Below are positions 3,624 to 56,055 of a stretch of DNA of 64,000 bases, piece after piece. Within the stretch, counting starts at the first letter, position 1. Each line of letters begins with the position of its first letter. Source of the DNA: an uncultured delta proteobacterium (GTDB lineage: Bacteria; Desulfobacterota; Binatia; UBA9968); the NCBI GenBank assembly GCA_963760795.1, contig CAVXEP010000012.1, positions 96,001 through 160,000 on the forward strand, in the 5' to 3' direction. The position numbers and the translations under genes were made by a program. Under the pieces are notes generated by a model. The model did no database searches and was not told the origin of the DNA. It worked only from the letters and a program-made list of their open reading frames with translations.

Positions 3624-4052
3624 TCAGAAGCCGCAATCCTTCGGCGTCACATCGATGGTCGCGAAATGCTGCTTGTCCTTGTCGAAATACGAGTAACGTA
3701 GAGTTACGCCTTTCTTGAGAAAATCGTCGCGCGTCTCGGGCCGGCTGCACGCGCTTTGCACTAGCCGGTCTCGCGCACCGGCGGCGAATCGTTGATGGTC
3801 AAGGTTTTTTACCGCATAGTTCACTAAACGATAGTTATAAATCAGCATCCCTTCATGGCCTGAGGATGGCATTAGCTCGGTCTCCTTATCGATCATCAGC
3901 GGTATGCCGCGATTGATCTCCGCGGCGATGCGGCTCAAATACTCCTGCGAGCGCGGGTCGTCCGGCTTACGTGGGAAATATGCCGGCACCAGCCACCAGA
4001 GCAAGTACGCCGCTATCACACCAACTGCGATCCAAGAAATGTTTCTGATCAT
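3624..4052 (-). CDS. Membrane-anchored protein resembling the PA3611/AspS pilotin-like family
   Basis: N-terminal TM helix; IN..P..ID.ET, Y.Y.L, C..P.....L..G..L.YSY.D, C-terminal TPKDC pattern. Confidence 0.55.
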   Translation of the reverse strand: MIRNISWIAVGVIAAYLLWWLVPAYFPRKPDDPRSQEYLSRIAAEINRGIPLMIDKETELMPSSGHEGMLIYNYRLVNYAVKNLDHQRFAAGARDRLVQSACSRPETRDDFLKKGVTLRYSYFDKDKQHFATIDVTPKDCGF

Positions 4053-5635
4053 CGTTTGAACTCAACTAAATGCCACGGCATACGCCCGTTACCTTCGCTG
4101 GCGATTATCCAAGTCCGCGACAACATCGGTAGTCTGACGAAATCGCGCTCCCTGACCAAGAGAAAGCCAGATTGGCCCGTCTTTAGCAATTTTTCCAATA
4201 CTGCCGGTGAACTTACAACCGGTATGACTTCGCGCTCGGCATAATAATTAAAATCATGCATGGTGTCGGCATAGATATACAACGGCACGGTCACTGGCAC
4301 GAATCTTTTGATCTCCAAGGCGAACGGTCGCGGCGATTTAAAATTTTCCAAATAGGGGAATATCCAAAGCGCCGCCGCGAAAATCGACAGAGTCATCAAA
4401 GCGACGATCGCCGCCATCGCCCTACGCAACTCGCGTAGCAGCAAGTATGCGGCAACGAGCGCGCCGCCGATCGTCAACACCAGAGTCGCCGGCAACAGCG
4501 GCAGCAGAGCATCGGGTCGCAGCCACCATGCCGCCGCTGGAACAAGGAGAGCGCCGAGCGCAAGCAGTGTGAAGCAACCCGCCATGAACCAGCGAAGATA
4601 CCCGCCTAGCGCGTCGCGCTCATGTCCGAGAGAGTCCCAATAGCAAGCGACCATTAACGCCGCCGTCGGCAGCAACGGCAGCAAATAAAGCTCGCGCTTG
4701 GTGGCGGCGATGGTAAAAAATAACAAGATTGTCAGAAACCAGCAGAGGCAAAGTTGACTGGAGACATCCTGCAAGGCTGGGCGATAAGGCCAGCGCGCGA
4801 TCAGTGCGGGGATGGCGAAGACCGTCCACGGCAAAAAATCGGCGGGTAGCGTCGTCAGATAATAATAGACCGGCTGCCGATGGCCGGCACCGGCGGTGTA
4901 ACGCTGCACATGATGGATGTAAATAAACTCGCTGAGCCAACGCCCGTCGGTTGCTTGCTGAACTAGATAAAACCACGGCACGGTGACCAGCAGGAAAATG
5001 GGAATACCCAAATGAAGCTTAGCTGCCGCGATCATGCGCCAATCGCGTCGCACCAGCATGAAGGCGCCGAATACCAAGCCAGGCAACACTACGCCGATCA
5101 ACCCCTTGGTCAGTACCGCCAGTCCCATGAAAGCGTAGGCAAAAAGAATCCCATAACCGCGATCTTTGCCGAGAAAAGTTCGTGCGGCGAAATAAATCGA
5201 CAACAGTAACCAGCAACAAAAAACCATGTCGACATGGGCCCAGCGCGCTTCCCAAATGACGCGCATCGATGTCGCCAAGACCGTCGCCGCGACAACGCCG
5301 ATGCGCGGGCTGAAAAAATCGCGGCCGAAGAAGTAAGTCGATAAAATTAATCCGACGCCGCCGAGCGCGGCGGGAAACCGCACCGTCCACTCGGACACGC
5401 TGCCGCAAAGGTTCGACGCGATCAGCGCCAGCCAGAAAAACAAAATCGGCTTATCGGTGTAAATGCCTCCGTTGACGGTGGGAACAATCCACTCGCCCTT
5501 GGCAAACATCACCCGAACGATCTCGGCGTAGCGCGGCTCCACCGGCGCCCAGAAATCACGCGAGCCGAGAGCGAAGAAAAATAACAGAGAACTTAAAATA
5601 ACGAGAATCAGCGGAAAGTGGTTTTGGCGAATCAA
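4049..5635 (-). CDS. ArnT-like family 39 glycosyltransferase
   Basis: EPRYAEIVR.M, DKPILFFW, LTKGLIG, K.ELYLLP motifs; polytopic membrane protein. Confidence 0.9.
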   Translation of the reverse strand: MIRQNHFPLILVILSSLLFFFALGSRDFWAPVEPRYAEIVRVMFAKGEWIVPTVNGGIYTDKPILFFWLALIASNLCGSVSEWTVRFPAALGGVGLILSTYFFGRDFFSPRIGVVAATVLATSMRVIWEARWAHVDMVFCCWLLLSIYFAARTFLGKDRGYGILFAYAFMGLAVLTKGLIGVVLPGLVFGAFMLVRRDWRMIAAAKLHLGIPIFLLVTVPWFYLVQQATDGRWLSEFIYIHHVQRYTAGAGHRQPVYYYLTTLPADFLPWTVFAIPALIARWPYRPALQDVSSQLCLCWFLTILLFFTIAATKRELYLLPLLPTAALMVACYWDSLGHERDALGGYLRWFMAGCFTLLALGALLVPAAAWWLRPDALLPLLPATLVLTIGGALVAAYLLLRELRRAMAAIVALMTLSIFAAALWIFPYLENFKSPRPFALEIKRFVPVTVPLYIYADTMHDFNYYAEREVIPVVSSPAVLEKLLKTGQSGFLLVRERDFVRLPMLSRTWIIASEGNGRMPWHLVEFKR

Positions 5636-5750
5636 TTGAACGGGTCAGCCGACGACGAGATAATTCAGCACTAACAGTCGCCAGGTTTTTTTTCCAGTGG
5701 CGCGGGCAGGGCAAACTAACGAAGCCTGCCGAGGGAGCTGTGATTGAGCC

Positions 5751-5783
5751 AAAAAAAGGGGAGCAGCCCATCGGCTGCTCCCC
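5751..5783 (-). terminator. Intrinsic terminator of the porin gene
   Basis: Minus strand ggggagcagcc-gatg-ggctgctcccc followed by T7. Confidence 0.9.
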
Positions 5784-5809
5784 GTCCGCCCTAAGTGGAG
5801 GCATTCAAC

Positions 5810-7048
5810 TTAGAACGTGTAAAGCAATTGCACACCGATCGTCGTCTGATTGCTTTCGGCGCTGTTTTTGCCTTTCTGGTAAACTGGGTGGTTGGCCCAA
5901 TCCTGACGCACCTCGGCGCGACCGATCAGCATCTTGGTAAACTTATAGCTGCCGGTCAAAGTCAGTTCGCCGAGTGTGACATTATGTTGGGGAGTAGTGG
6001 CCGATAAGCCGGCAGTTCGCGCAGCTTCATTATCGAAGAAAACCTCGCCACGCAGAGCCGTGGTGAAACGGTCGGTCCAGCTCCACGATGCGATAGCAGC
6101 AAGAGCGTGCCAGTAAACATTTTCCGAATTGCTCGTCGGCGTGGCCACTTCAGATTCCCTGCCGAACGTATATTCGAACAAAATTGTCAACGGATCCGTC
6201 GGTTTGATCGTCGCCACACTGCTCCAGGTCATCCTTAGGCGTCCGGTGTTATGCCTTTGTTCGGGACCAATTAGGAGATTGCTCGCCAAGCCAAAGGCAT
6301 CGCTCGGGGTCAAGTTCACGCCAACAATACCGGATGGCGCGCTGTTGTTGTCGTGCGGATTATCCCAACCGGTCACCACGCCTAAAGTGGCCGTGACCGT
6401 TTTGTGAAACGGATAGCTGAACAACGTCCCGAGATGGCGCAGCGGGACACCAAAGTTAAACGCGAAAGAACGAGAAATATTGTCGTTATACGCGCCGGGG
6501 TTGTTAAGAATTTCCGTGCCTAAGAGAGTTGTGAACAAGCCGCCTTTGATACCGATGCCCTCGCCCAAAGGAATGGTGGTTGTAAGATATGCTTCACGCA
6601 GCTCGGCCGACGGTCCGCAGCAAAACCTGGCACCGGTACTGTTCCACTGTGTGGCTTCGTGCAGCAGCTCGCCATATCGACCAAAATCACCGGAAACCCT
6701 GAAACCAACGCCCCAGTCCTTTTCCGGCTTTTCTACTGCGAGATGAAAATTACTAACATTAAACTGATTATTGTCTTTATCGAAATAGCGCCCGGAGATA
6801 TTAGACCCATTACCGGGATGATTCGAGCTCCATATGTAGCCCATATCGATAAATCCGCTGATGCCGATGCCCAAAGCATTTTCCAACCCACTTTTACCGT
6901 TGCCGATGGCGCCATCGAGCTTGCCGACACTGCTATCCAGACTCAACCAGCCTGGGCCGAGCGGCTTATCTTCGGCCGCCATAACGTTTTGCCCCCCAAG
7001 CACGATGACTCCAGCTAAGAGCGCGATTCGAACCATTCCACGTTTCAT
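5810..7048 (-). CDS. Outer-membrane beta-barrel porin (putative porin-2/DUF1597-like)
   Basis: Signal peptide, G.F.TLLG.E, N.SRSFAF motifs, amphipathic strands, C-terminal Phe. Confidence 0.8.
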   Translation of the reverse strand: MKRGMVRIALLAGVIVLGGQNVMAAEDKPLGPGWLSLDSSVGKLDGAIGNGKSGLENALGIGISGFIDMGYIWSSNHPGNGSNISGRYFDKDNNQFNVSNFHLAVEKPEKDWGVGFRVSGDFGRYGELLHEATQWNSTGARFCCGPSAELREAYLTTTIPLGEGIGIKGGLFTTLLGTEILNNPGAYNDNISRSFAFNFGVPLRHLGTLFSYPFHKTVTATLGVVTGWDNPHDNNSAPSGIVGVNLTPSDAFGLASNLLIGPEQRHNTGRLRMTWSSVATIKPTDPLTILFEYTFGRESEVATPTSNSENVYWHALAAIASWSWTDRFTTALRGEVFFDNEAARTAGLSATTPQHNVTLGELTLTGSYKFTKMLIGRAEVRQDWANHPVYQKGKNSAESNQTTIGVQLLYTF

Positions 7049-38419: not shown

Positions 38420-39493
38420 TTGATTCCTGGCAAAGCACCGATGGTTGTCATAAAAGTCGAAAAAGTCAGCAAGCGATACAACCACACCCCGGCTGTAAAG
38501 CGCTGCGACCTCCAAGTCCATTCAGGTGAGATTCTAGCACTGCTCGGACCGTCGGGATCGGGGAAAACCACCTTGCTCCGGCTGATTGCCGGATTCGAGC
38601 GACCCGATGAAGGGCGGATTCTTATCGGCGAGCGCACCGTCGTCGACGTCGCCGGTTCGATATGGCTCCCCGCCGAAGCGCGCGGCGTCGGGATGGTTTT
38701 TCAGGACTACGCCTTGTTTCCCCATTTGACGGTGACCGAGAATATTCAGTTTGGCCTGCGCGGCATTGCCAACCAAGAGCGCCAAGAGCGCCTTCAAGAG
38801 TTGTTGCGGGCAACCGAGTTGCTGCCGTATGCACAACGATATCCCCATGAATTATCGGGTGGTCAGCAACAGCGGGTTGCTTTGGCGCGCGCCCTAGCAC
38901 CGCGCCCGCCGGTTGTCTTGCTTGACGAAGCCTTCAATGGCCTCGACCCTGAACTCAGGCCGCAAATGCGCAAAGAGGTCGCTAGCATATTGCGCCAGAT
39001 GAAAACGGCCGCGGTGCTGGTCACCCACGACCAGGAAGAAGCTCTCGGAATGGCCGACCAAGTGGCGGTCGTTCGCCAGGGCGAACTGCAGCAAGTCGGC
39101 ACACCGGAAGAGGTCTATTATAATCCTTCGACTATATTTGTTGCCGGATTCGTCGGCCACGCCGACTTTATCGGTGGCGTCGTATCCGGAGCACAGGTTC
39201 AGACCGAATTTGGCAATTTCTCCTGTTCATCGGAGATTCGTCCCGGCCCGGTCAAAGTGATGATCCGCCACGAGGCCGTCAACACCAAAGCCGACGGCAT
39301 TCTCGCCACCGTCGAAGAGCGCGAGTTTCTTGGCGGCGAAATCCTCTACCGGCTGCGTCTCCCCTCGGGCGACGCGGTCCACTTGGAGCAACGCAAACCC
39401 GTCCATTGGCCGGTCGGACACCGAGTGCCAATCGACGTTCATATCCCCACCGCCGTGGTCTTTGCCGATGCCGGCAGTGAACCCATCGAGTAG
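38420..39493 (+). CDS. fbpC: Fe3+ ABC transporter ATP-binding protein
   Basis: GPSGSGKTT, FQDYALFPH, LSGGQQQR, TOBE tail; adjacent to fbpAB. Confidence 0.8.
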   Translation: MIPGKAPMVVIKVEKVSKRYNHTPAVKRCDLQVHSGEILALLGPSGSGKTTLLRLIAGFERPDEGRILIGERTVVDVAGSIWLPAEARGVGMVFQDYALFPHLTVTENIQFGLRGIANQERQERLQELLRATELLPYAQRYPHELSGGQQQRVALARALAPRPPVVLLDEAFNGLDPELRPQMRKEVASILRQMKTAAVLVTHDQEEALGMADQVAVVRQGELQQVGTPEEVYYNPSTIFVAGFVGHADFIGGVVSGAQVQTEFGNFSCSSEIRPGPVKVMIRHEAVNTKADGILATVEEREFLGGEILYRLRLPSGDAVHLEQRKPVHWPVGHRVPIDVHIPTAVVFADAGSEPIE

Positions 39494-39795: not shown

Positions 39796-40875
39796 TTGTC
39801 GGGAGGACATGAGATGAAGCATAGGTATTCGCAATGTTGCTTGTCGGTTTTTGCCTTGATTTTTGGACTCGGGTTAAGCGCGATTTTTAGTGTCACCGTG
39901 ACGGCGCAAGAAAAGGTCATGAACCTCTATACCGCCCGTCATTATTCCACCGATGAAGCTTTCTACACCGGCTTTAGCAAACTCACCGGCATCAAGCTTA
40001 ATCGCATCGAAGGCGGCGAAGACGCGCTTTTCGAACGGATCAAGGCCGAAGGCGCCGCTAGTCCGGCGGATGTCTTCTTGACCGTCGATGTCGCCCGGCT
40101 GTGGCGCGCGGAGCAGGCGGGCATCTTCGCGCCGCTCAAGTCGGAACTGCTGGCTAAGCGCATCCCCGCTCACTTTCGCGATCCCAATGGCAACTGGTTC
40201 GGCTTCTCATCGCGGGTTCGGGTTATCGCCTATGATCGGCGTAAGGTCAGTCCCGGCGATGTCGCGCGCTATGAGCAGTTGGCCGATTCCAAGTGGAAAA
40301 GCGAAATCTGCACCCGCCCGAGCAGCCACCCATATAACCTTTCTTTAACATCCAGCATGATCCTCCACTTGGGCGAGGATAAGGCGCGCGAGTGGGCGCG
40401 CGGCGTGGCAACCAACTTGGCTCGCCCGCCAAGAGGCGGCGACACCGACCAATTGACCGCAGTGGGCGTCGGTGAATGTTCGATCGCGCTGTCAAACCAT
40501 TATTACTATGTCCGGCTTATGCGTTCGACAAAGCCGGAAGATCGCGCGCTGGTGGAAAAAGTCCACATCGTTTGGCCCAATCAGAACGATCGCGGCGCTC
40601 ATGTCAACATTTCCGGCGGCGGCATACTGAAAAACGCCCCCAATCGCGACGCTGCGGCGAAGTTTCTCGAGTATCTCGCCAGCGACACGGCACAAGCTTA
40701 TTTTGCCGATGGCAACAACGAATGGCCCACCGTCAAGGGCGTGAAGCTGGCCAATCCCCAGCTCGAGACTTTCGGCCGGTTTAGGACCGACGCCGTTGCC
40801 ATTGGCAGATTTGGGCAAGACCCAGGCGGCGGCCCAGCGACTGGCCGACCAGGTCGGCTGGAAATGAAGCCTTAA
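39796..40875 (+). CDS. fbpA: Fe3+ ABC substrate-binding protein (FutA/FbpA; probable indel near the 3' end)
   Basis: LYTARHY, SPADV, GGDTDQ, NHYYY, HVNISG, NNEWP. Confidence 0.9.
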   Translation: MSGGHEMKHRYSQCCLSVFALIFGLGLSAIFSVTVTAQEKVMNLYTARHYSTDEAFYTGFSKLTGIKLNRIEGGEDALFERIKAEGAASPADVFLTVDVARLWRAEQAGIFAPLKSELLAKRIPAHFRDPNGNWFGFSSRVRVIAYDRRKVSPGDVARYEQLADSKWKSEICTRPSSHPYNLSLTSSMILHLGEDKAREWARGVATNLARPPRGGDTDQLTAVGVGECSIALSNHYYYVRLMRSTKPEDRALVEKVHIVWPNQNDRGAHVNISGGGILKNAPNRDAAAKFLEYLASDTAQAYFADGNNEWPTVKGVKLANPQLETFGRFRTDAVAIGRFGQDPGGGPATGRPGRLEMKP

Positions 40876-40906: not shown

Positions 40907-42652
40907 ATGACAACGATTGCCGCTGCTTTGCGCTCGAAGGCCATCAGCGACATCACCGTGCCGCGGATCGGTGCTCTTGGCGTGGTGTCATTGATAACCG
41001 CCGCCCTGGTGGTGGCGCCGATTGCTGCGGTCGTCTGGAACATTTTTCTGCCCAGCGAGGCGACCTGGGAGCACCTGATATCGACTGTCCTGCCCGAGTA
41101 CATCGCCAACACTTTCCTGCTGCTAGTGCTGGTCGCCGCGGGAGTTGTTTGCTGCGGCGTGCTCTCCGCGTGGTTGGTTACCGCCTATGAATTCCCTGGC
41201 CGACGCGTCCTAGAATGGGCGCTGGTGTTGCCAATGGCGATCCCCGCATATGTCATGGCCTATGCTTACACCGATTGGCTCCAGACCTCGGGACCGGTGC
41301 AAAGCATACTGCGCGAATTCACCGGTTGGCGGGTGCGCGAGTACTGGTTTCCGGAAATCCGCTCATTGCCGGGCGCCGCGACCATGCTGTCGCTCGCGCT
41401 CTATCCCTATGTTTACCTGCTGGCGCGCGGCGCCTTCCTTGAACAGTCACGCAGCAGCTATGAGGCCGCCCAACTGGCCGGCTATGGCGCGTGGGGAAGA
41501 TTTTGGCATGTGTCATTGCCTCTGGCGCGCACCGGGATTGTCGCCGGCGTCGCCTTGGCGCTGATGGAGACACTCGCTGATTTCGGCACCGTCTCGTATT
41601 TTGCCGTGAATACTTTTACCGCTGGCATCTACCGCGCCTGGCTCTCCCTTGGCGATTCGGTCGCCGCGGGCCAGCTCGCTACCTGCCTGCTCGTGTTCGT
41701 GCTCGCAATGCTCGCCCTAGAGCGCATGCACCGCGGCGATGCGCGCTATACCAGCAACCGCACACCCATAACCCCGCAACGGCTTGGCGGCGCCAAGGCT
41801 ATGGGCGCATTCGCGCTATGCGCCATACCGATCGCATTCGGTTTCATGGTGCCGGCGGCGATTCTGCTTGAACTGGCCCTGACCGATCCGCAGGTGCAAT
41901 TTGGCGCGCGCATCACCGGACTGATTACCAACACGTTTATTTTAGCTGGCATCGCCGCGATTGCCGCCGTCGTCGTCGCCATGCTGCTGGCTTATGCGGC
42001 AAGGACAGTGAAGAGCCCGCTGGTACAAGCAGCGAATCGCCTGGCTGTGCTCGGCTATGCCCTGCCAGGCGCGGTGATCGCGGTAGGCATTCTTCTACCG
42101 CTGGGCAAGCTCGACAACGCTTTGATCGCCTGGATTTACCAACAGTTTGGCGTGCGCACCGGATTGATTTTAACCGGTTCGGTCACGGCGCTCATCTATG
42201 CCTATCTCGTCAGGTTTCTCGCCGTGGCGTTTCAAACGGCCGAAGCCGGGCTGACACGGGTGACTCCGTCGATGGACGATGCCGCGCGCAGCCTTGGCCT
42301 TTCACCCGGCCGCACCCTGGTGCGGGTGCACATGCCGATCATGCGCAGCAGCATCGCCACCGCAGCGCTGCTCGTATTCGTCGACGTTATGAAAGAATTA
42401 CCGGCGACCTTCGCCATGCGGCCGTTTAATTTCGACACCCTAGCGGTGGAGGCCTACAACTTGGCAAAGGACGAGCGCATCGCCGAAGCCGCCCTGCCGG
42501 CGCTGCTGATGGTCGCCATCGCGCTGTTGCCGCTGATTTTACTGTCGCGCCAGATCGCCAATTCGAGCCAGCGCAACGCATGTGGCTCGCAGTCAGGACT
42601 CTGCTGTCTAGCCGAACCAGGGATCCGAGATGACCACGAGCACTTTACTTGA
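40907..42652 (+). CDS. fbpB: Fe3+ ABC transporter permease
   Basis: PAYVMAYAY, YPYVYLLAR, METLADFG, MKELPAT..MRPFNFDTLA. Confidence 0.92.
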   Translation: MTTIAAALRSKAISDITVPRIGALGVVSLITAALVVAPIAAVVWNIFLPSEATWEHLISTVLPEYIANTFLLLVLVAAGVVCCGVLSAWLVTAYEFPGRRVLEWALVLPMAIPAYVMAYAYTDWLQTSGPVQSILREFTGWRVREYWFPEIRSLPGAATMLSLALYPYVYLLARGAFLEQSRSSYEAAQLAGYGAWGRFWHVSLPLARTGIVAGVALALMETLADFGTVSYFAVNTFTAGIYRAWLSLGDSVAAGQLATCLLVFVLAMLALERMHRGDARYTSNRTPITPQRLGGAKAMGAFALCAIPIAFGFMVPAAILLELALTDPQVQFGARITGLITNTFILAGIAAIAAVVVAMLLAYAARTVKSPLVQAANRLAVLGYALPGAVIAVGILLPLGKLDNALIAWIYQQFGVRTGLILTGSVTALIYAYLVRFLAVAFQTAEAGLTRVTPSMDDAARSLGLSPGRTLVRVHMPIMRSSIATAALLVFVDVMKELPATFAMRPFNFDTLAVEAYNLAKDERIAEAALPALLMVAIALLPLILLSRQIANSSQRNACGSQSGLCCLAEPGIRDDHEHFT

Positions 42653-42732
42653 GCCGGCGCAAACGGCAGGCCGAACCACGATTGGCGGATAGTAACTTTT
42701 TCAGGTCGCTTCCCCTTCCATATACGAACACT

Positions 42733-44711
42733 ATGGGTTCCTCCCCGGCTACGATTCCGCCACAATCGAAAGTTCAGATCGGCTCCTGTTCGCCATTGGA
42801 CTTGTTTTCCTAACCGTCACCGGCGCATTCGCTGCCGGCGATGAAGCCAAGCGTATTTTAGCGCTAATCGATTACATCGGCGGCGACTATCGCAACGCCG
42901 TGCAAGGCGGGAAAGTCGTCAGTGACGCCGAGTACACGGAGATGAGCGAGTTCTCGGCGCGCAGCTTGGAGCTGTTCAGCCAATTGAAATCCGCCGAAGG
43001 CGATAAAGCGGGCATCGAAAAAGATCTGCGAGCGCTGGCAAGCCACATACAGCAGAAAACCGGCGAGGATGCAGTGCCGCAGTTGGCCCAGCAGATCAAG
43101 GACCGCTTGATCAAAACCTATAACATCGTCACCTACCCCAAGGCTCTGCCGAACTACGAGGGCGCGAAACTGATCTACATGCAGAATTGCGCTCAGTGCC
43201 ATGGCGAGAGCGGCAGAGGCGACGGCCCCGGCCGCGAGTCGATGAATCCAAAAACACCGCCGCCGGCCAATTTTACCGACGCAGACTTCATGGCCGGACT
43301 CTCGCCTTTTAAAGTCTATAACACGACCACGTTCGGCATCGACAAAACGGCGATGGCTTCCTTCGCCGCGCTGCCGGACGAGCAACGCTGGCAAGTCGCC
43401 TTCTATGTTATGGCGCTACGTTTTCCCGCTGAAACAGCAGCTGCCGGAGAGTCCTGGCTGAAAGGCAAGTCGCTGCCGGCCACCCTCGCAGGCGTCGCCA
43501 CCTTGGCAACTTCTTCAGACAACGAGCTATCCGATAAAATCAAGACGAGTTTTCCCAACGCGCCGCACAACGACATTCTCGCCTACCTCAGGCGCGGGCT
43601 TCTAGAGAAAAAATCGAGCGATCCATTGTTGATCGCTCGCACCCTGCTCGGCGAAGCCGCTGAGATATACAGCAAAGGCGATAAGGAAAAAGCTTACCAG
43701 AAAGCCATCGAGGCCTACCTTGACGGCTTCGAGATGGCCGAGCCGGCGCTGTTCGCCAAGGATGCGGCCTTGGGAAGATCTCTCGAGGCCCAGTTCACGC
43801 AGTTTCGCAATTCGATCCGGCAGGGAGTTTCCGCCGAGGAGATTCAAAAACAACACGCCGAGATCGAAGCCAAGCTCGACCAGGCGGCACAGATGTTGGC
43901 CAGCAGCGATGATTTCTCCGGTTATTACGCATTCTTGAATTCGGCCCTGATCATTTTACGCGAAGGACTAGAGGCGGCGCTGATTCTCGCCGCGATCATC
44001 GCCATGCTGCGAGTGATGGGCGCGACAAAATCGATTCGTTACATCCATTTCGGCTGGATGCTGGCGGTGGCCGCCGGTTTCCTCACCTGGCTCGCCGCGC
44101 AGACCGTGCTGACTTTCAGCGGCCAGCACCGTGAAAGCATGGAAGGATTCATCTCGATCTTCGCCGCGGCGGCGCTGTTCTATGTCGGCTATTGGCTGCA
44201 CACCCGGACCGAGGCTAAACGGTGGCAGGCGTTTATTCAAGACAAAGTCCAAAACGTACTTTCGCGCAAAAGTATCTTCGGACTGGTCGGCATCTCTTTT
44301 TTCGCTGTGTATCGCGAGGCCTTCGAGGTCGTGCTCTTCTATCAGGCGCTCTGGTTACAGAATGAAAATAGCCACCAAGCCATCCTTGGCGGATTCGCCG
44401 CAGGCGTAGCCGCGCTGCTCGCGGCTACCTTTGCGATCTTCAAGCTCGGCCTGCGCATACCGCTAAAATACTTCTTCGGCGTCACCGGCACACTGCTCTA
44501 CATCATGGCCTTCATCTTCGCCGGCACCGGCATCAATCAATTGCAGGCGGCCGGCTGGGTTCCGGCAACACCGCTCGATTTTCCGCCGGCGGTGCCGCTG
44601 TTGGGCATCTATCCGACCATGGAAACCCTGGCAGCCCAGGGACTATTGGTCTGCATATTTATAGCTACCTCGCTATGGATGGCGCATGAACGAAAAAAGG
44701 CAGTGGCTTAA
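42733..44711 (+). CDS. Cytochrome c / FTR1 iron permease (PbrT-like); 5' end uncertain
   Basis: LIDYIGGDY.NAV, CAQCH heme motif, REGLE and YREAFE FTR1 motifs. Confidence 0.9.
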
Positions 44712-44900
44712 ATGCGTGTTCCAAGGCAAGGCGAACAGGAAACGGCGGAGACGGTGACTCAGGACGGCGATGCGCTTCGTTGCCATTGCGGCAGCTTGGT
44801 CGCCCGGCTGGTGCCGAATGGAGTGGAAATCAAATGCCGCCGCTGCAAACGGCGCGTTGTAATTCCGCTCGGTTTGGGCGCTTTTGAAATCTCAGAATAG
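44712..44900 (+). CDS. Mu Com-like zinc-ribbon microprotein
   Basis: LRCHCGSLVAR...VEIKCRRCKR; ATG immediately follows the FTR1 stop. Confidence 0.75.
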   Translation: MRVPRQGEQETAETVTQDGDALRCHCGSLVARLVPNGVEIKCRRCKRRVVIPLGLGAFEISE

Positions 44901-45006
44901 AGCCAATAATCGAGAAGCCATGGCACTTGATTGAAAGCTAATTAAGTTTTAATGTTCAGTTACTTAAAGAGTAATATTTAGTATCGACTAATAATTTTAC
45001 TTAGAG

Positions 45007-45037
45007 TTGACAAATATTATTGATTTCGATATACGAA
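45007..45037 (+). promoter_or_regulatory. sigma70 promoter of the TonB operon with candidate operator
   Basis: TTGACA-17bp-TATACG; TTCGATATACGAA overlaps the -10; TTAG-TATCGA-CTAA at 44978-44991. Confidence 0.7.
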
Positions 45038-45045
45038 CATAATTA

Positions 45046-45120
45046 GCGGCCAGCGATCTAGAATCCAGAGCCCGGATTTTGCCGAAAAAATATCGGCAAA
45101 ATTACGGGCATTTTTATTGT
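45046..45120 (+). promoter_or_regulatory. Leader attenuator: tandem repeat units overlapping an intrinsic terminator
   Basis: GCGGCCA-GCGATCTA-GAATCCA-GAGCCC, then gcccg..attttgccga-loop-tcggcaaaat..cgggc-ATTTTTATTGTTT, before the first SD. Confidence 0.8.
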
Positions 45121-45138
45121 TTACGGAGGTCAATCTAA

Positions 45139-45351
45139 ATGTACGGCATCAAATCACCCCAGGGCAGATGGTCGGTCTCGCTTTGCAACTGTAGTCAGGA
45201 CACCGCCCACTTTCACTACGGCAGCGTCGTCCTGCACATCGCCCGTGACGACCTGCGCGAGCTTGGTCTCGCCATGCAAAGCGTCGCCGAAGGTAGCGAC
45301 CTAACTGATACGGAAAATCACATCGAGTTAAAGAAAGGTCTGGTCCAATAG
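45139..45351 (+). CDS. Small hypothetical protein with a CxC-x5-HxH motif
   Basis: GGAGG SD; LCNCSQDTAHFHYG; first gene of the operon. Confidence 0.65.
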   Translation: MYGIKSPQGRWSVSLCNCSQDTAHFHYGSVVLHIARDDLRELGLAMQSVAEGSDLTDTENHIELKKGLVQ

Positions 45352-45353
45352 TC

Positions 45354-45963
45354 ATGTCGGCATTTATTGCAATCATCATCAAAGGCGGCATCGTCATGAT
45401 CCCGCTGCTCGCTTGCTCCTTGATCTCACTCGCGCTCACCATCGAACGGTTTGTGTTTTGGGCCAAACTGAAAACCAAAGATGTCCTGGATCAAATCTTG
45501 TCATTGGTCGAAAAGGGCGAATTCGAACAAGCTCTTAAAACTGGGCAAGACCTCCAGCCAGCCAATCGCGCGGGTTTTAGCGGCGGGTATCGCGCACCGC
45601 AATCCCGCGCCGGCGAAGGCAATGGAAGCTCTGGCGCAGGCCGAGATTCCCGTGCTCAAAAGCCGCCTCGGAATTCTCGACACCATCGTGACGCTTGCCC
45701 CTCTGCTCGGATTGCTCGGCACCGTCGTCGGCATGATCGGCTCCTTCGATGTCATGTCGGAAGCGGGCATGGGGCAACCCCACGCCATTACCGGCGGAGT
45801 CGCGGAAGCGCTCATCGCCACTGCCACCGGCTTGTTGATCGCGATCTTGACCCTGGTCTCCTACAACTACTTCACCGCCAAGGTCGAGCGCGAAATGGAC
45901 CGCATGGAGCACTTCAGCTCCTCGCTGGAATTGTTGCTGCATGAACATGCGGGGAAGCATTAA
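45354..45963 (+). CDS. exbB: MotA/TolQ/ExbB proton channel (frameshift near 45545)
   Basis: GGIVMIPLL..S, LAPLLGLLGTV.GMI, GGVAEALIATA.GL. Confidence 0.9.
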
Positions 45964-46376
45964 TGCGCATTCAACGCCGCAGTATCAAGAAAGCGCGCAT
46001 CGAGATCATCCCGATGATCGACACGATCTTTTTTCTACTGGTATTTTTCATGATCTCGACCTTGTCGATGACCCAGTTCAAAGGCATGCCGGTCAATCTG
46101 CCCAAGGCGGCGTCCGGCCAGCAGGCGCCCGCCGAGAGCGCGGCGATCACGATTGATAAAGACGGCCGGTTGTTTCTCAACCAGCAAGCGATCGACAAAG
46201 CGGCTCTCGGTGAAGCTTTGAGCCAGCAACTTGCGAAGAATGCCGAGATGTTGGTCGTCATCAACGCCGACGACGGCGTTCAGCACGGCCAAGTGGTCGA
46301 AGTCATGGACATCGCCCGCGGCGCCAACGTGGCAAAGATGGCCATCGCGGTCAAACCGAAGGAGCAGAAAAAATGA
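45963..46376 (+). CDS. exbD: Biopolymer transport protein ExbD
   Basis: IIPMIDTIFFLLVFFM, VNLPKA, INAD..V.HG.VV.VMD. Confidence 0.92.
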   Translation: MRIQRRSIKKARIEIIPMIDTIFFLLVFFMISTLSMTQFKGMPVNLPKAASGQQAPAESAAITIDKDGRLFLNQQAIDKAALGEALSQQLAKNAEMLVVINADDGVQHGQVVEVMDIARGANVAKMAIAVKPKEQKK

Positions 46377-47203
46377 ACGAGCGCTGGTTGGTATCTTCAT
46401 TCACTGCGTCGTCGTTGATTCATTTGGGAATAATTCCGTTGGCTGCGTTGGTGATGCACGCCAAACCGATTAAACCCGCCATGGTTCCCATTGAGCTGGT
46501 GGATGTGGCGCGCGTCGAGGAACCGAAGAAAGTCGAAGTCCCACCGCCTCCGCCTCCTCCAGCGCCCAAACCCAGGCTGCAAAATATCACCGCGCCGAAG
46601 CTTATATCCAAACCGGATTTCGAAACCAGCCCGCTGCCGCCAACCGGCAACACCAAGGAAGAGATCAAAGAGAAACCGGTCGAACAGCCGCTCGCCTCGC
46701 TGCCGGATAACTCCGGCGCCGCCAAGGCTGGATGGAATGTCGGCGCGCGCGCCGCGGAAGCCGAAGGCAGCGCCGCCGGCGCCGGCAATCTTTTCGGCAA
46801 GGGCGACGTGGGCGTGGTCGGCGGTAGCGGCGTGGCCGGCGGTGGCGGCGGCACAGGCGCGTCGGGATTGGGTCGAGGCGCCAAGGGCGACGGCACCGGC
46901 GGCGGCGCGGGCTCCGGCGAAGCATTATCGGGTCTCGCTCGCCCGCTCGGCGGTTACCAAGTCAAGCCGCGCTATCCCGAGTCCGCCAGAAGAGCGGGTG
47001 TTCAGGGAGTAACAACGTTGCGCGTGCGTGTTTTGGAGAATGGCCGGGTCGGCGAAGTGGTGGTCGAACAGTCAGCCGGCTTCCGGGATCTCGATTTCGC
47101 CGCGATGGACGCGGTCAAAAAATGGCTCTTCGAGCCGGCTCGCCGGGGCAAAGACGCGGTGTCGGTCTGGGTGATGTTACCGGTGAAGTTCGAACTGCAC
47201 TAG
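46373..47203 (+). CDS. tonB: Energy transducer TonB
   Basis: TM SxxxH motif, Pro-rich linker, YPESARR.G.QG, W.FEPA. Confidence 0.92.
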   Translation: MNERWLVSSFTASSLIHLGIIPLAALVMHAKPIKPAMVPIELVDVARVEEPKKVEVPPPPPPPAPKPRLQNITAPKLISKPDFETSPLPPTGNTKEEIKEKPVEQPLASLPDNSGAAKAGWNVGARAAEAEGSAAGAGNLFGKGDVGVVGGSGVAGGGGGTGASGLGRGAKGDGTGGGAGSGEALSGLARPLGGYQVKPRYPESARRAGVQGVTTLRVRVLENGRVGEVVVEQSAGFRDLDFAAMDAVKKWLFEPARRGKDAVSVWVMLPVKFELH

Positions 47204-47211
47204 GAAAGACC

Positions 47212-47403
47212 ATGGGCAAAACGCTTGTGAATTTCGCTATCAAACAAACGGTCACACCGAGTCTGCCGGCCCCTTCCGGCCCAAAGCCGCGCATCGAAAG
47301 CAATCACTTGTTTCAAGGCAACAGCGAGATCGTCATCGTGCACCAAAAGGAGGAATACAACCTGCGCATCACCAGAAACGGCAAGCTAATTTTGACGAAA
47401 TAA
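47212..47403 (+). CDS. hemP: Hemin uptake regulator HemP/HmuP
   Basis: LFQG..EI.I.H..EEY.LRITRNGKLILTK signature. Confidence 0.92.
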   Translation: MGKTLVNFAIKQTVTPSLPAPSGPKPRIESNHLFQGNSEIVIVHQKEEYNLRITRNGKLILTK

Positions 47404-47414
47404 TGTTTATGACG

Positions 47415-47488
47415 AAGCCAGCCATCCTCTCCTCCGGACGTGGAAAGCCAGCCAATCAAGCAACCCAAACACTATGGAGGATGAGATG
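47415..47488 (+). promoter_or_regulatory. HemP-responsive direct repeats with an anti-SD segment
   Basis: AAGCCAGCCA at 47415 and 47445; CATCCTCTCCTCC between them is complementary to GGAGGATGAGATG. Confidence 0.7.
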
Positions 47489-49662
47489 AGTCGGCAACAA
47501 AAGCGTGCGATCGAAAGAAAGAAGGGCAAGACGGCGTTCCAAAAACTCTGTCTTGCCGCGGGCGAAGGAGTTGGCAAGGCGATGGCTTTCAGCTTTGCGT
47601 TGGCAAGCCACGCAGGCGCGGCGGAGCCGAAAAAAGAGGAACCGATCACCCTGCCGCCTGTGGTGGTGCAGGATCAAGGCAGCCCCTACACTGCCGGAAT
47701 CGTCCCTGTCGAGAATACCTGTACCACTGCAGGATATGCCACAGTCGATTACCGTGATACCGCAACGATTAATGCAGGAACGCGGAGCTGCTAGCTTCCA
47801 CGATGCGTTGCGCAGTGTACCCGGTATTAGTTTCCAAGCAGGCGAAGGGCGGCGCTCAGGGCAACAATTTGACGTTGCGAGGCTATAACGCGAGGAACGA
47901 CCTTTTCATTGACGGGGTTCGCGATCAGGGCTCGTATTTTCGCGATATATTCAATCTCGAATCGATTGAGGTTCTAAAAGGACCGTCCTCACCTATACTT
48001 CGGCCGTGGCTCGACCGGTGGCGCGATCAATCAGGTCAGCAAAGTTCCACAGCTTACGCCGAGCTACGGCGGCATGTTTGCTCTGGCGGCAACGGGGTTT
48101 ATTTGCGGGGCACGAGCGATGTCAACCACCCAATAACCCGGTCGCCCACGCGGCTTTCCGCGTCAACTTGATGGCCCACAAGGACGATATTGTCGAGTCG
48201 CGACATTTCAGAGCAGCAACGATTGGGATTTGCGCCGTCGATCTCGTTCGGTCTCGGCACCCCAACCCAGTTAACCTTGAGCTATCTTATTCAAGGCGAA
48301 GACAATATTCCGGATTATGGTTTGCCCTACGTGGAATGGCAACCCGTTCCGCACCGACCGGAACAGCTTCTATGGCTTTGACCAGTGAAGATTACGAAGA
48401 AGACAATGCTGAATCTCGGCACGTCGCGGCTGGATCATCGCTTCAACGATATTTTCAGCTTGCGGAATACCCTACGCTACAGTCATAACGACCGGGAGCA
48501 CGAAACCACAGCGCCACGCGTCAATGTCATCCCCACCCTGTTCACCAGGAATAGACCGGCGCGCGATATTACTGAGGCGCTTCTCAGCAACCAAACGGAT
48601 CTAACCGCCAAGTTCGACACGTGGGGCTTTAAGCATGCATTAGTCTCAGGGCTCGAGTTTTCCCGGGACTGGTTGGATCGAACCAATTGATGCTTTCGTG
48701 GGAGCGCCGCCGGCAAACGCTATCAATCCAAACCCATACGCCAGTACCGCGGGCATGTCACACTCGGCTATCGCAGCGCGCAGACGGCGCCGCCTTCGGA
48801 TTCGGCATCTTCGCCGCAGATCAAATCAAACTGAACGAGTATTTTGAACTCGTCGGCGGCGTCCGTTGGGATTATTTCGACAACGACTTCGAAGGATCAC
48901 GCATAATACCCTGACGCGATAAGCTCGTTCGGACGGGTCGACGGATAAAATGTGGAGTTATCGGGGCGGACTGATCTTTCACCCGACCCCGTCACAGAGC
49001 TACTATTTCTCCTATGCGACCTCGTTCAATCCCTCCGCCGAAGCCATCCCTCAGCCAGCCACCAACGGTACTCCTCCGGAAAAGAATAGAATCTTCGAAA
49101 TCGGCGGAAAAGTGGAATTCTTCAATGGAACCTTAAACCTGCAAGGCGCTGTATTTAGAATCGACAAAACCAATGCCCGTGTAACTGATCCATTAGACCC
49201 AACCGGGACGCTCGTGCTTGACGGTGAGCAACGTGTTCAGGGTGTGGAATTCGGCATCGCTGGCCGCATTCTCCCCAACTTGAATGTGTTCGCTGGATAC
49301 ACTTTTCTCGATTCGAAGTTTCGCAAATCCCCGACCCCAGCCGTCGAGGGCAATCCGATATTAAACGTGCCGAAGCACAGCGCGAACTGTGGGTAACCTA
49401 CGACTTTTTCGAAAAGTGGCAGATCGGCGGGGGGCCGACGTATGTCAGCAGCTCGATCTACAACAATGCCGCGAACGTCACCCGTGTCCCGGTTCATGTT
49501 CTCTGGGACGCGACGGTGGCGTATCAGCTAACCAAGAATTTCCAATTCCGGCTCAATGGTATCAATCTTACCAATGACCATTACTATTCGGCTCTCAGCG
49601 GAGGAAACGTGTTGCCTGGAAATGGGCGCACGTTCATCCTCAGCACGAGCTTCAAGTTCTAA
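47486..49662 (+). CDS. TonB-dependent siderophore receptor (Fiu/PiuA-like), multiple frameshifts
   Basis: [47 protein letters not shown]-terminal F, spread over at least 6 ORF pieces. Confidence 0.85.
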
Positions 49663-55091: not shown

Positions 55092-55404
55092 ACCTTACCT
55101 CCGTACGGTTTATCTAAGCATGTACTTCGGCAAAGAACAAAGCGGATTATAGACTTTTGCTGAATTTTTCCAGCCGCCGATTCTCATCGGACGTCCTCTC
55201 TGTCATTCTCAATAGGACCATAGTCCACTTTGATCAATTGCCCGTGAACACTTTCGCCATCAGAAAACTAAAGACACCGGTGTTTCCCATAGTTGAAGTT
55301 TTTTGCAGCCCACATTTTCAACAATGACAATTTATCTTTGGTCCAGCCTCGATAAACCAAGCCAATCGGACGCGGCACGCTAAGTGCTTCTTCAGCTAAA
55401 CAAA

Positions 55405-55464
55405 GAGGCCAGCGGTCACGAACCCAGAGCCCAGCGTTTTGCCTTAGCGGCAAAACCCGGGCTC
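55405..55464 (+). promoter_or_regulatory. Second copy of the repeat+hairpin leader, upstream of dpsL
   Basis: GAGGCCA-GCGGTCAC-GAACCCA-GAGCCC (23/28 identical to the 45046 copy) plus GTTTTGCC/GGCAAAAC stem. Confidence 0.75.
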
Positions 55465-55554
55465 TCGGATTTGCTTACGATGAGATGCCAGCGCAAAAGA
55501 ATAATGATATGGTGTTTGTCCATCCGTAAACAAATCAATCAGGAGGAGAATATT

Positions 55555-56055
55555 ATGGGCACTAAAGGAAGAGAAATTGTCGGCATGGACGTAGAACAAC
55601 TGTTGAAGACACTCAACATGGCTTTCGCCGACGAGTGGTTGGCTTATTATCAATACTGGCTCGGCGCCAAAGTCGTGAAGGGGCCGATGAAAGAAGCGGT
55701 GATCGCCGAACTTTTGCAACATGCGGCGGACGAGCTTCGTCATGCCGGCCTGATCGCGGGCAGGATTATTCAGCTCGGCGGCACGCCGGTGGCCGAGCCG
55801 AAAAAATGGTACGACGTGACCAGTTGCGGTTACGACGCGCCCGATGACCCGTTCGTCGAGACTATCCTGAACCAAAACATCAAGGGCGAGCGCTGCGCCA
55901 TCGACTTTTACAAGAAGCTGTTAGAGGCGACGCAGGGCAAAGATCCGGTCACTTACAATATCGTATTGCAGATTCTCCAGGACGAAGTGGCGCACGAGGA
56001 AGACCTCCAATCGCTCGCTGAGGACCTGGACTTCATGTTGAAGAAATCACAATAG
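55555..56055 (+). CDS. Ferritin-like DPSL (Dps-like) protein
   Basis: ADEWLAYYQYW, ELRHA...RIIQLGG.P, two Cys (SC.Y, ERCAI), E..HEED; AGGAGG SD. Confidence 0.88.
   Translation: MGTKGREIVGMDVEQLLKTLNMAFADEWLAYYQYWLGAKVVKGPMKEAVIAELLQHAADELRHAGLIAGRIIQLGGTPVAEPKKWYDVTSCGYDAPDDPFVETILNQNIKGERCAIDFYKKLLEATQGKDPVTYNIVLQILQDEVAHEEDLQSLAEDLDFMLKKSQ

Follow-up and report, generated by a model that had tools for sequence, protein, structure and literature searches.

A chromosomal Com-like zinc-ribbon protein and a conserved 26-nt RNA element in leaders of iron-acquisition genes: a candidate antitermination system

Introduction

Com has so far been a curiosity of one phage and one gene. In phage Mu, according to the sections of PMC6483171 that treat this switch, the protein binds a short hairpin lying beside and overlapping the translation-inhibition hairpin of mom and activates translation, and the RNA motif selected by Com consists of two GAG(N)2CC words next to a 3-4-bp stem. 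Com-like genes have also been noted, as unexplained, in Pseudomonas chromosomes, where they precede genes for LlpA bacteriocins, tailocin cargo or levansucrases; the passage of PMC6240691 that deals with them presumes a role and leaves it unexplored. Here we describe a Com-like protein and a putative RNA partner in a 64,000-nt stretch of contig CAVXEP010000012.1 (assembly GCA_963760795.1, an uncultured member of the Binatia), referred to below as the window. All features mentioned in it lie on the forward strand. A gene for a 62-amino-acid (aa) zinc-ribbon protein (44712-44900) stands at the end of an iron-uptake operon, and a conserved 26-nt RNA element (45048-45073) follows in the leader of a TonB-type operon. 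Our preferred reading, to which we give a probability of about 0.55, is that the protein would be a Com-type RNA-binding protein domesticated as the activator of an iron regulon, acting by antitermination or by unmasking of ribosome-binding sites.

Control of leader terminators by proteins is familiar from BglG/LicT and its ribonucleic antiterminator (RAT), HutP, PyrR and TRAP. There, as is proposed here, the RNA site to which the protein binds is short and shares bases with one strand of the terminator, and because of this overlap binding and terminator formation are mutually exclusive. The protein families concerned (PRD/CAT, HutP, PyrR, TRAP) are, however, unrelated to a zinc ribbon of 30 residues, and the present element differs further in being used also with hairpins that mask the Shine-Dalgarno sequence (SD) and in having no known ligand or phosphorylation input. 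Post-transcriptional iron regulons are known as well, namely Fur with RyhB-type small RNAs and, in animals, the iron regulatory proteins (IRPs) with their iron-responsive elements (IREs). The present system recalls both in that a short RNA element is repeated in iron-uptake and iron-storage leaders and in that the putative regulator is encoded within an iron-uptake operon, but the Com-like protein has no similarity to aconitase-type IRPs or to the Hfq-dependent small RNAs.

Several traits tie the new pair to Mu com and mom. The protein has 62 residues, four cysteines in the same order of pairs and a basic stretch after the third of them; its gene lies directly upstream of the presumed RNA target; this target, a short hairpin flanked by GA-rich words, both abuts and overlaps an inhibitory hairpin; and some GC-rich versions mask the SD and the start codon, as in mom. 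In contrast to Mu Com, the present gene lies outside any prophage and beside iron-transport genes, and its product has a CxC first knuckle and fails to match PF10122. The RNA element, too, differs in sequence from the Mu site. The inhibitory structure here is mostly a transcription terminator, which points to control of transcription and not of translation, and there are several targets per genome instead of one. The Pseudomonas genes are likewise Com homologues outside Mu prophages and directly upstream of one cargo gene, but their products match PF10122, their cargo comprises bacteriocins and glycosyl hydrolases and not iron-uptake genes, and the passage about them describes neither a conserved RNA element nor a multi-gene regulon (PMC6240691). 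Our literature search, outside which most subscription journals and supplements lay, returned no description of a Com-like protein with iron genes or of the element. The present system may be viewed as a domesticated form of the Com principle, in which the RNA partner is new, the read-out is a terminator and the regulon comprises several iron genes.

Results and Discussion

A distant relative of Com encoded behind an iron permease

The initial annotation of this DNA had pointed out a 62-aa CxC...CxxC open reading frame (ORF) abutting the stop codon of FTR1, and it is found at 44712-44900, its ATG directly behind, and in frame with, the TAA of the cytochrome c-FTR1 fusion gene (42900-44711). 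The cysteines occupy positions 24, 26, 42 and 45. Homologues numbered 62, of which 13 are named "phage FluMu protein Com" by the Joint Genome Institute (JGI), and in an alignment of 25 sequences drawn from the query and these homologues the core, including all four cysteines, is invariant. The wider family comprises 1113 cluster representatives (50% identity) at E<=0.001, the best 150 of which are 45-199 aa long. Judged from sequence, the ORF is a real conserved gene. The possibility that it is an in-frame extension of FTR1 is disfavoured, the best 150 family members being 45-199 aa long and the ATG following a stop in many loci; a separate gene coupled to FTR1 is more likely than a read-through fusion. 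In 14 of 37 loci the Com-like ATG comes immediately after the FTR1 stop codon and in its frame, which makes coupled translation of the two genes likely.

The relationship to Com comes from profile comparisons. An hhalign alignment of the family profile with Mu Com (taken from the phage record) has a probability of 92.4% and an E-value of 5e-7 (pairwise, uncorrected for database size) over 30 columns with 37% identity; it spans both Cys pairs and the basic KCxRCKR stretch, with a one-residue gap in the first knuckle. The sole match among 38,880 PHROG families was PHROG 13819, gpCom (E 0.0024), and a neighbour cluster in the ESM-Atlas bears PF10122 (score 0.90). NCBIfam has no useful family for the protein, and a sequence search of the PDB gave chance matches to C1 domains only (E of at least 0.077), with no solved relative. 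As for the location, claimed at the outset to be free of prophage, no phage gene appeared among the scanned neighbours. We conclude from these comparisons that the protein is, in a wide sense, a distant, chromosomal relative of phage Mu Com. The first description of the protein thus survives as regards its Com-like nature (hhalign at 92%, gpCom PHROG, JGI names) but not as regards membership of the Pfam family: the comparison with the PF10122 hidden Markov model that had been suggested gave no match for the protein, for the 25 members or for the locus.

The family shows some variety of architecture and position. Certain members (P0066, P0071, P0095 and others), 103-199 aa long, have two matched stretches, that is, tandem zinc ribbons. 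In a genus of the same family as the window's genome, the Com-like gene stands upstream and not downstream of FTR1 (locus L023, in G036:C135; L and G are our handles for loci and genomes). Three genomes carry two Com-like genes, at L053 (G013, 3704-6600), L043 (G025) and L069 (G028), one behind FTR1 and the other directly before the leader of ORF70-exbB (ORF70 is described below). The second Com-like gene of L053 is itself preceded by a copy of the RNA element, a hint of autoregulation. The first copy of the gene in G025 looks broken (split match), as does the second copy in G028 (internal TAG).

A conserved RNA element that overlaps a predicted terminator

The 26-nt core (GGCCAG..CCAGAGCCC, 45048-45073) matches our covariance model with 63.3 bits. 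It consists, in this order, of GGCCAG, a 3-bp hairpin (P1) and CAGAGCCC; RNAalifold pairs 45055-45057 with 45063-45065 around a loop at 45058-45062. The word CCAG(A/C)G occurs twice, at 45050-45055 and 45065-45070, so that it flanks the stem, and many copies carry GAGAAYCC and GAGCCC, which are not strictly of the GAG(N)2CC form. In an alignment of 28 copies the core is ungapped, with 20 invariant columns, and RNAalifold predicts from it both P1 and the base of the terminator hairpin (P2). The leaders of relatives retain the promoter-like hexamers (see below), the nearly invariant block and the SD. The four repeat units of 7-8 nt proposed initially turned out not to be repeats of one another; they tile this one structured, almost invariant 26-nt block. 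A fuzzy search with the core found the block also 10-60 nt behind the Com-like gene in loci devoid of exbB. No Rfam family was matched by the leader strand at E<=10, by the whole window at the gathering score or by five diverse loci at E<=1, in agreement with the novelty suspected for the element.

Among 59 distinct copies the middle pair of P1 is GC in 33, AU in 13, GU in 12 and another combination in 1; 97.6% of all cells are paired, and the covariation score exceeds that of 500 of 500 shuffles and collapses when the partners are slid, values that come from an alignment gathered with, and fitted to, the covariance model, of related sequences and for a short helix. An alternative P1 (GGCC with GGUC), preferred by single-sequence folding in some copies, is broken by GAUC variants, including that of the window; because of these variants, and because the adopted P1 covaries, the latter was retained.

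P2 occupies 45070-45109 and is followed by a T-rich tail (45111-45118, with TTTTT at 45111-45115). Its 5' strand begins inside the conserved core, as had been stated for the last of the supposed units. The fold has -26 kcal/mol (z -3.44), and none of 200 shuffles was as stable. In relatives the inner stem varies with compensatory changes and the GCCC/GGGC base is fixed. A simple terminator scanner did not list P2, the stem of which has a bulge; with its stable G+C-rich hairpin and U run it has what is asked of an intrinsic (Rho-independent) terminator and is predicted to be one. The overlap of element and terminator is the geometry that would be expected for protein-dependent antitermination.

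Could P2 be nothing more than the usual terminator of an operon that ends in a small conserved gene, with flanks that are similar by recent common descent? Terminators at operon ends are common and many of the compared genomes belong to one genus. Yet the 26-nt block is almost constant beside a stem, a loop and flanks that are free to vary, it recurs in records whose proteins are just 50-60% identical and which carry other phylum labels, several copies per genome stand before different genes, and P1 covaries. We regard this explanation as very unlikely.

Upstream of the element lies a promoter-like site (45007-45035) formed by TTGACA (45007-45012), a 17-nt AT-rich spacer and TATACG (45030-45035), preceded by an AT-rich stretch. 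Its hexamers and spacer are kept in the exbB-type leaders of relatives, and the site is absent where the RNA element directly trails the Com-like gene. A consensus sigma-70 scan of 44600-45400 returned no promoter-like site. The promoter of the initial annotation is thus backed by a perfect TTGACA and by a TATACG at 17 nt, both conserved, but its -10 hexamer lacks the canonical last T and the scanner did not see it. That Fur-type control acts at 45007-45035 is our guess.

A promoter, some 75 nt and a terminator are also the layout of many iron-regulated small RNAs. The leader might accordingly encode a small RNA that acts in trans, either under iron control or originating from the 3' end of the mRNA for the Com-like protein. 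It would base-pair by means of its conserved unpaired part, the Com-like protein would be its chaperone, and read-through into exbB would be incidental. The conserved promoter-like site and the strong terminator do enclose about 75 nt, and an element directly behind the gene would form the 3' end of that mRNA. Against this, a same-strand gene with an SD-like site follows 64 of 65 copies of the element, some versions lack a T tail and instead base-pair with the SD and start codon of the gene that follows, genomes hold several copies, each before a different iron gene, and the 22 nt between the terminator and ORF70 leave no room for another promoter. A small RNA therefore appears to us distinctly improbable.

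Co-occurrence of the protein and the element

We have surveyed 61 genomes, the window's own and 60 relatives (an unpublished genome, G004, is counted among them and supplies one alignment row; the public record L034 has the same leader). The protein was found in 22 of them, namely the own genome, 19 of the 30 others of the genus and 2 from other genera in that family; the 24 genomes of two sister families yielded none. As anticipated from the window, protein and motif go together: a strong motif (49-78 bits, the threshold being at least 49) is present in 21 of the 22 protein-bearing genomes versus 0 of the 39 protein-less ones, counts that overstate independence as the genomes are kin. The exception, G027, has a degenerate remnant of 11.7 bits at the expected spot. 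Three weak matches occurred in protein-less genomes, two of them apparently within coding sequence. In G007, where no Com-like gene was found at E<=0.001, a degenerate 35-bit motif with both CCAG words altered lies behind FTR1 (L130, G007:C9, 1380-1700).

For other species we have examined the best 80 of 315 confirmed loci. In 48 the motif (E<=0.0041) follows the gene on the same strand at no more than about 450 nt, and weak matches were found at the same spot in 7. The element is upstream of the Com-like gene in L088, as it is upstream of the second such gene in G013/L053. FTR1 directly precedes the Com-like gene in 20 of 23 loci of relatives and in 37 of the 80 loci of other species. Some record titles ("Chloroflexota", "Verrucomicrobiia") sit on duplicates of sequences of the window's genus (L049 = L010, L099 = L016), and for this reason the phylum range has not been read from titles. 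One locus titled Haliangium (L067:6150-6290) has two tandem copies of the core behind the Com-like gene; when the sequences behind the gene in Sorangium and Haliangium were aligned, no shared element emerged.

These data bear on a further explanation, in which something else (another protein, a metal or a small ligand) binds the element and the Com-like protein is an accessory of FTR1, for instance a cytoplasmic metal-handling partner, their co-occurrence arising solely from one inherited iron gene cluster. The abutting stop and start codons in 14 of 37 loci would suit a subunit or partner, FTR1 is directly upstream in 37 of the 80 loci, synteny among kin inflates co-occurrence, and Sorangium has the protein without a recognisable motif. 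On the other hand, 43 of the 80 loci have no FTR1 upstream and many of them keep the motif (L075, L076, L077, L081, L084, L093), the protein resembles an RNA-binding zinc finger, an element of 26 nt whose stem has 3 bp would be a small aptamer for a ligand, and in G007, which has lost the protein, the motif has decayed. We consider another binder quite unlikely.

Genes behind the element and two proposed kinds of read-out

Genomes contain one to four copies of the element. Those dispersed away from the Com-like gene always precede a gene of the same orientation (window 55403, L062:10152, L054:6668, L092:10976 and others). The second copy of the window (55403-55469; core 55407-55432, hairpin and weak T tail) scores 50.9 bits (E 6e-12), folds with -33.6 kcal/mol (z -3.9) and lies 86 nt upstream of a gene for a ferritin-like protein of 166 aa (55555-56055; Pfam Ferritin, 9.7e-25); homologous matches to it exist in G003, G019 and G013. 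Overall, 64 of 65 copies stand ahead of an ORF of the same orientation that has an SD-like site (the heuristic may mis-call some), at a distance of 12-23 nt for most genes of the ORF70 family and at about 100 nt or less for nearly all others. The 64 downstream genes comprise 21 of the ORF70 family, which are then followed by exbBD-tonB, 16 for secreted proteins of 270-520 aa (weakly porin O/P-like), 6 for DUF6662 proteins, 5 for cupredoxins, 2 for di-haem peroxidase-like proteins, 1 each for a multicopper oxidase and the ferritin-like protein, and 12 that encode small proteins without a known family or are uncertain as ORFs, 2 of them possibly ORF70-like. Going by their predicted products, these genes and the FTR1 gene upstream are a coherent iron-acquisition set. 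A second family of small proteins (87-100 aa, with an LRWG.G.GWY stretch and no Pfam match) is often encoded right behind the Com-like gene and the element (L047:6291-6593, L041:6342-6605, L039:763-1044; similar ORFs in L037, L068, L086 and L095).

A T-rich tail is present in 29 of 44 distinct copies (the screen mis-trims some of the rest). In L045, L106, L075 and L093 the 3' part of the motif pairs instead in the region of the SD and AUG. AGAGCCC, with which the core ends, is put to two uses, as the 5' strand of a predicted terminator in the window and most relatives, and in pairing around the SD and start codon in some GC-rich loci; among the SD-covering folds, those of L045 (z -2.6) and L077 (z -2.4) stand out. 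Since one recognition element is joined to two kinds of inhibitory hairpin, a trans-acting binder is suggested, and two read-outs of this sort are typical of a leader controlled by a ligand or a protein.

The proposed mechanism and its alternatives

In the mechanism that we favour, the Com-like protein would be made together with the cytochrome c-FTR1 permease and would bind the 26-nt element in the 5' leaders of iron-acquisition genes, keeping its last bases from pairing into the inhibitory hairpin. In the window this would allow read-through into ORF70-exbBD-tonB-hemP-receptor and into the ferritin-like gene at 55555; in some GC-rich relatives it would open the hairpin over the ribosome-binding site and translation would start. 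A regulator made along with FTR1 could in this way extend expression to the TonB system and to other iron genes. The direction of control, activation, is taken by analogy from Com at mom, and the link to iron status is inferred through co-expression with FTR1.

A number of observations weigh against this proposal. On the side of the protein, PF10122 (Zn_ribbon_Com, cut-off 22.9 bits) was matched neither by the 62-aa sequence nor by any of 25 members of the family at E<=10; the genome, searched in six frames, gave five weak matches elsewhere and none at the locus. The first zinc knuckle is CxC and not CxxC as in Mu Com; tblastn against 50,697 phage records yielded chance matches alone (E of at least 3) and no Com gene. 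The AlphaFold2 model is weak (mean predicted local distance difference test score of 64), with three short strands (29-34, 37-42 and 48-51), and Foldseek found nothing in the PDB at E<=0.001, zinc-ribbon proteins being included among its weak top rows. On the side of the RNA, the best match of the covariance model to the Mu com/mom region has 4.9 bits, i.e., no match; P1 has 3 pairs only and is missed by a single-sequence fold of the window's leader; the invariant base of P2 yields no covariation signal; and the SD-covering folds of L075, L093 and L106 (3 of 5) are no better than shuffles. No motif was matched beside the gene in 25 of the 80 loci of other species (one is at a contig edge, two have the motif about 1 kb further on, one has it upstream and several look divergent by eye), and the alignment downstream of the gene in five Sorangium isolates contains no recognisable element. 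As to transcripts, the public sequencing runs contained at most 0.25 of the sampled words and were without exception stored as contigs; four of them have short pieces of relatives only, with 44886-44993 uncovered. Contigs cannot show transcript ends, so these runs speak neither for nor against termination. In one contig, from a run guessed to be RNA that may be DNA, the terminator tail of a relative is joined to the start of ORF70.

The fixed base of P2 also matters for the sign of the regulation. As it never varies, it might be recognised as a duplex, which would mean repression: the Com-like protein would clamp P1 and the P2 base, strengthen termination or SD masking, limit read-through from the FTR1 operon and the leader promoter, and exert feedback on itself where the element precedes its gene. 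Both strands of the base are invariant, which would suit recognition of a duplex, and the position of the element upstream of Com-like genes in G013/L053 and L088 is that of autoregulation. But an invariant 3' strand follows simply from an invariant 5' strand in need of a partner, and a terminator of -26 kcal/mol is strong enough to need no help. Mu Com, the only relative to have been characterised, acts as an activator and opens the hairpin next to its site (PMC6483171). Binding with repression is in our estimation unlikely, and we hold to activation as the preferred reading.

A bolder extension of the activator model would make the system an analogue of IRP/IRE, in which the four-cysteine site of the Com finger takes up Fe(II) or zinc depending on supply and switches leaders of iron uptake, oxidation and storage genes in several soil phyla; we mention it as a speculation with rather little chance of being right. 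Whatever its sign, the association ties a large uncharacterised branch of Com to an uncatalogued RNA element and to iron-acquisition genes, and the covariance model can serve to annotate leaders of iron genes in metagenomes. If binding is true, the pair would represent a new class of protein-dependent leader control, with terminator and SD-masking read-outs, as well as a second layer of iron regulation beside Fur in little-studied soil lineages (the records are titled Candidatus Binatia and Myxococcota), and about 30 residues with 26 nt of RNA would make a compact natural pair and a possible genetic part.

Gene neighbourhood in the window

The Com-like gene follows an ABC-transporter/FTR1 iron-uptake operon that includes genes for an ABC ATPase (38420-39493), a binding protein (39796-40875) and a permease (40907-42652). 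The cytochrome c-FTR1 gene (Pfam FTR1 9e-26, Cytochrom_C 8e-11; EfeU/Ftr1 in NCBIfam) is its last large gene.

The first gene 3' of the leader is ORF70 (45139-45351), which encodes a 70-aa protein of no known family (no match in Pfam, NCBIfam or PHROG) and has an SD, GGAGG, at 45125-45129. Strong matches to it exist in 10 of the 61 genomes, all 10 with the Com-like gene and the motif. It is invariably the first gene past the RNA element and ahead of exbB. Five genomes of a sister family that have no Com-like gene contain distant homologues (37-38% identity); one of these (L151:2085-2495, minus strand) is oriented divergently to a gene for an iron ABC binding protein.

Beyond ORF70 come exbB (45354-45963), exbD (45963-46376; Pfam ExbD), tonB (46373-47203; Pfam TonB_C), hemP (within 47122-47403; Pfam hemP) and the gene of a TonB-dependent receptor (47474-49396). 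This is the order given initially for the operon behind the terminator, except that the conserved ORF70 in between had been overlooked. The genes themselves are present, but neither exbB nor the receptor gene is intact in the assembly: exbB is frameshifted near an AAAA run (about 45537-45540), and Pfam MotA_ExbB matches only its second frame; the receptor is broken up into at least four frames, its plug and barrel matching Pfam on separate ORFs. In the close relative L004 exbB is in one frame, contigs of relatives from public sequencing runs have one base fewer at 45533-45539, and the receptor is a single ORF of 844 aa in L029 and of 723 aa in L032. The window's genome is a metagenome-assembled genome (MAG) of 35 contigs, and the breaks are probably long-read indel errors in the MAG, or decay; they lie outside the finding described here.

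Ten bases of the -10/start region of the leader, ATATACGAAC (45029-45038), recur at 42720-42729, about 170 nt upstream of the cytochrome c-FTR1 ORF, with a TTTTCA before them at the right distance for a -35 hexamer. This site may be a second promoter of the leader type.

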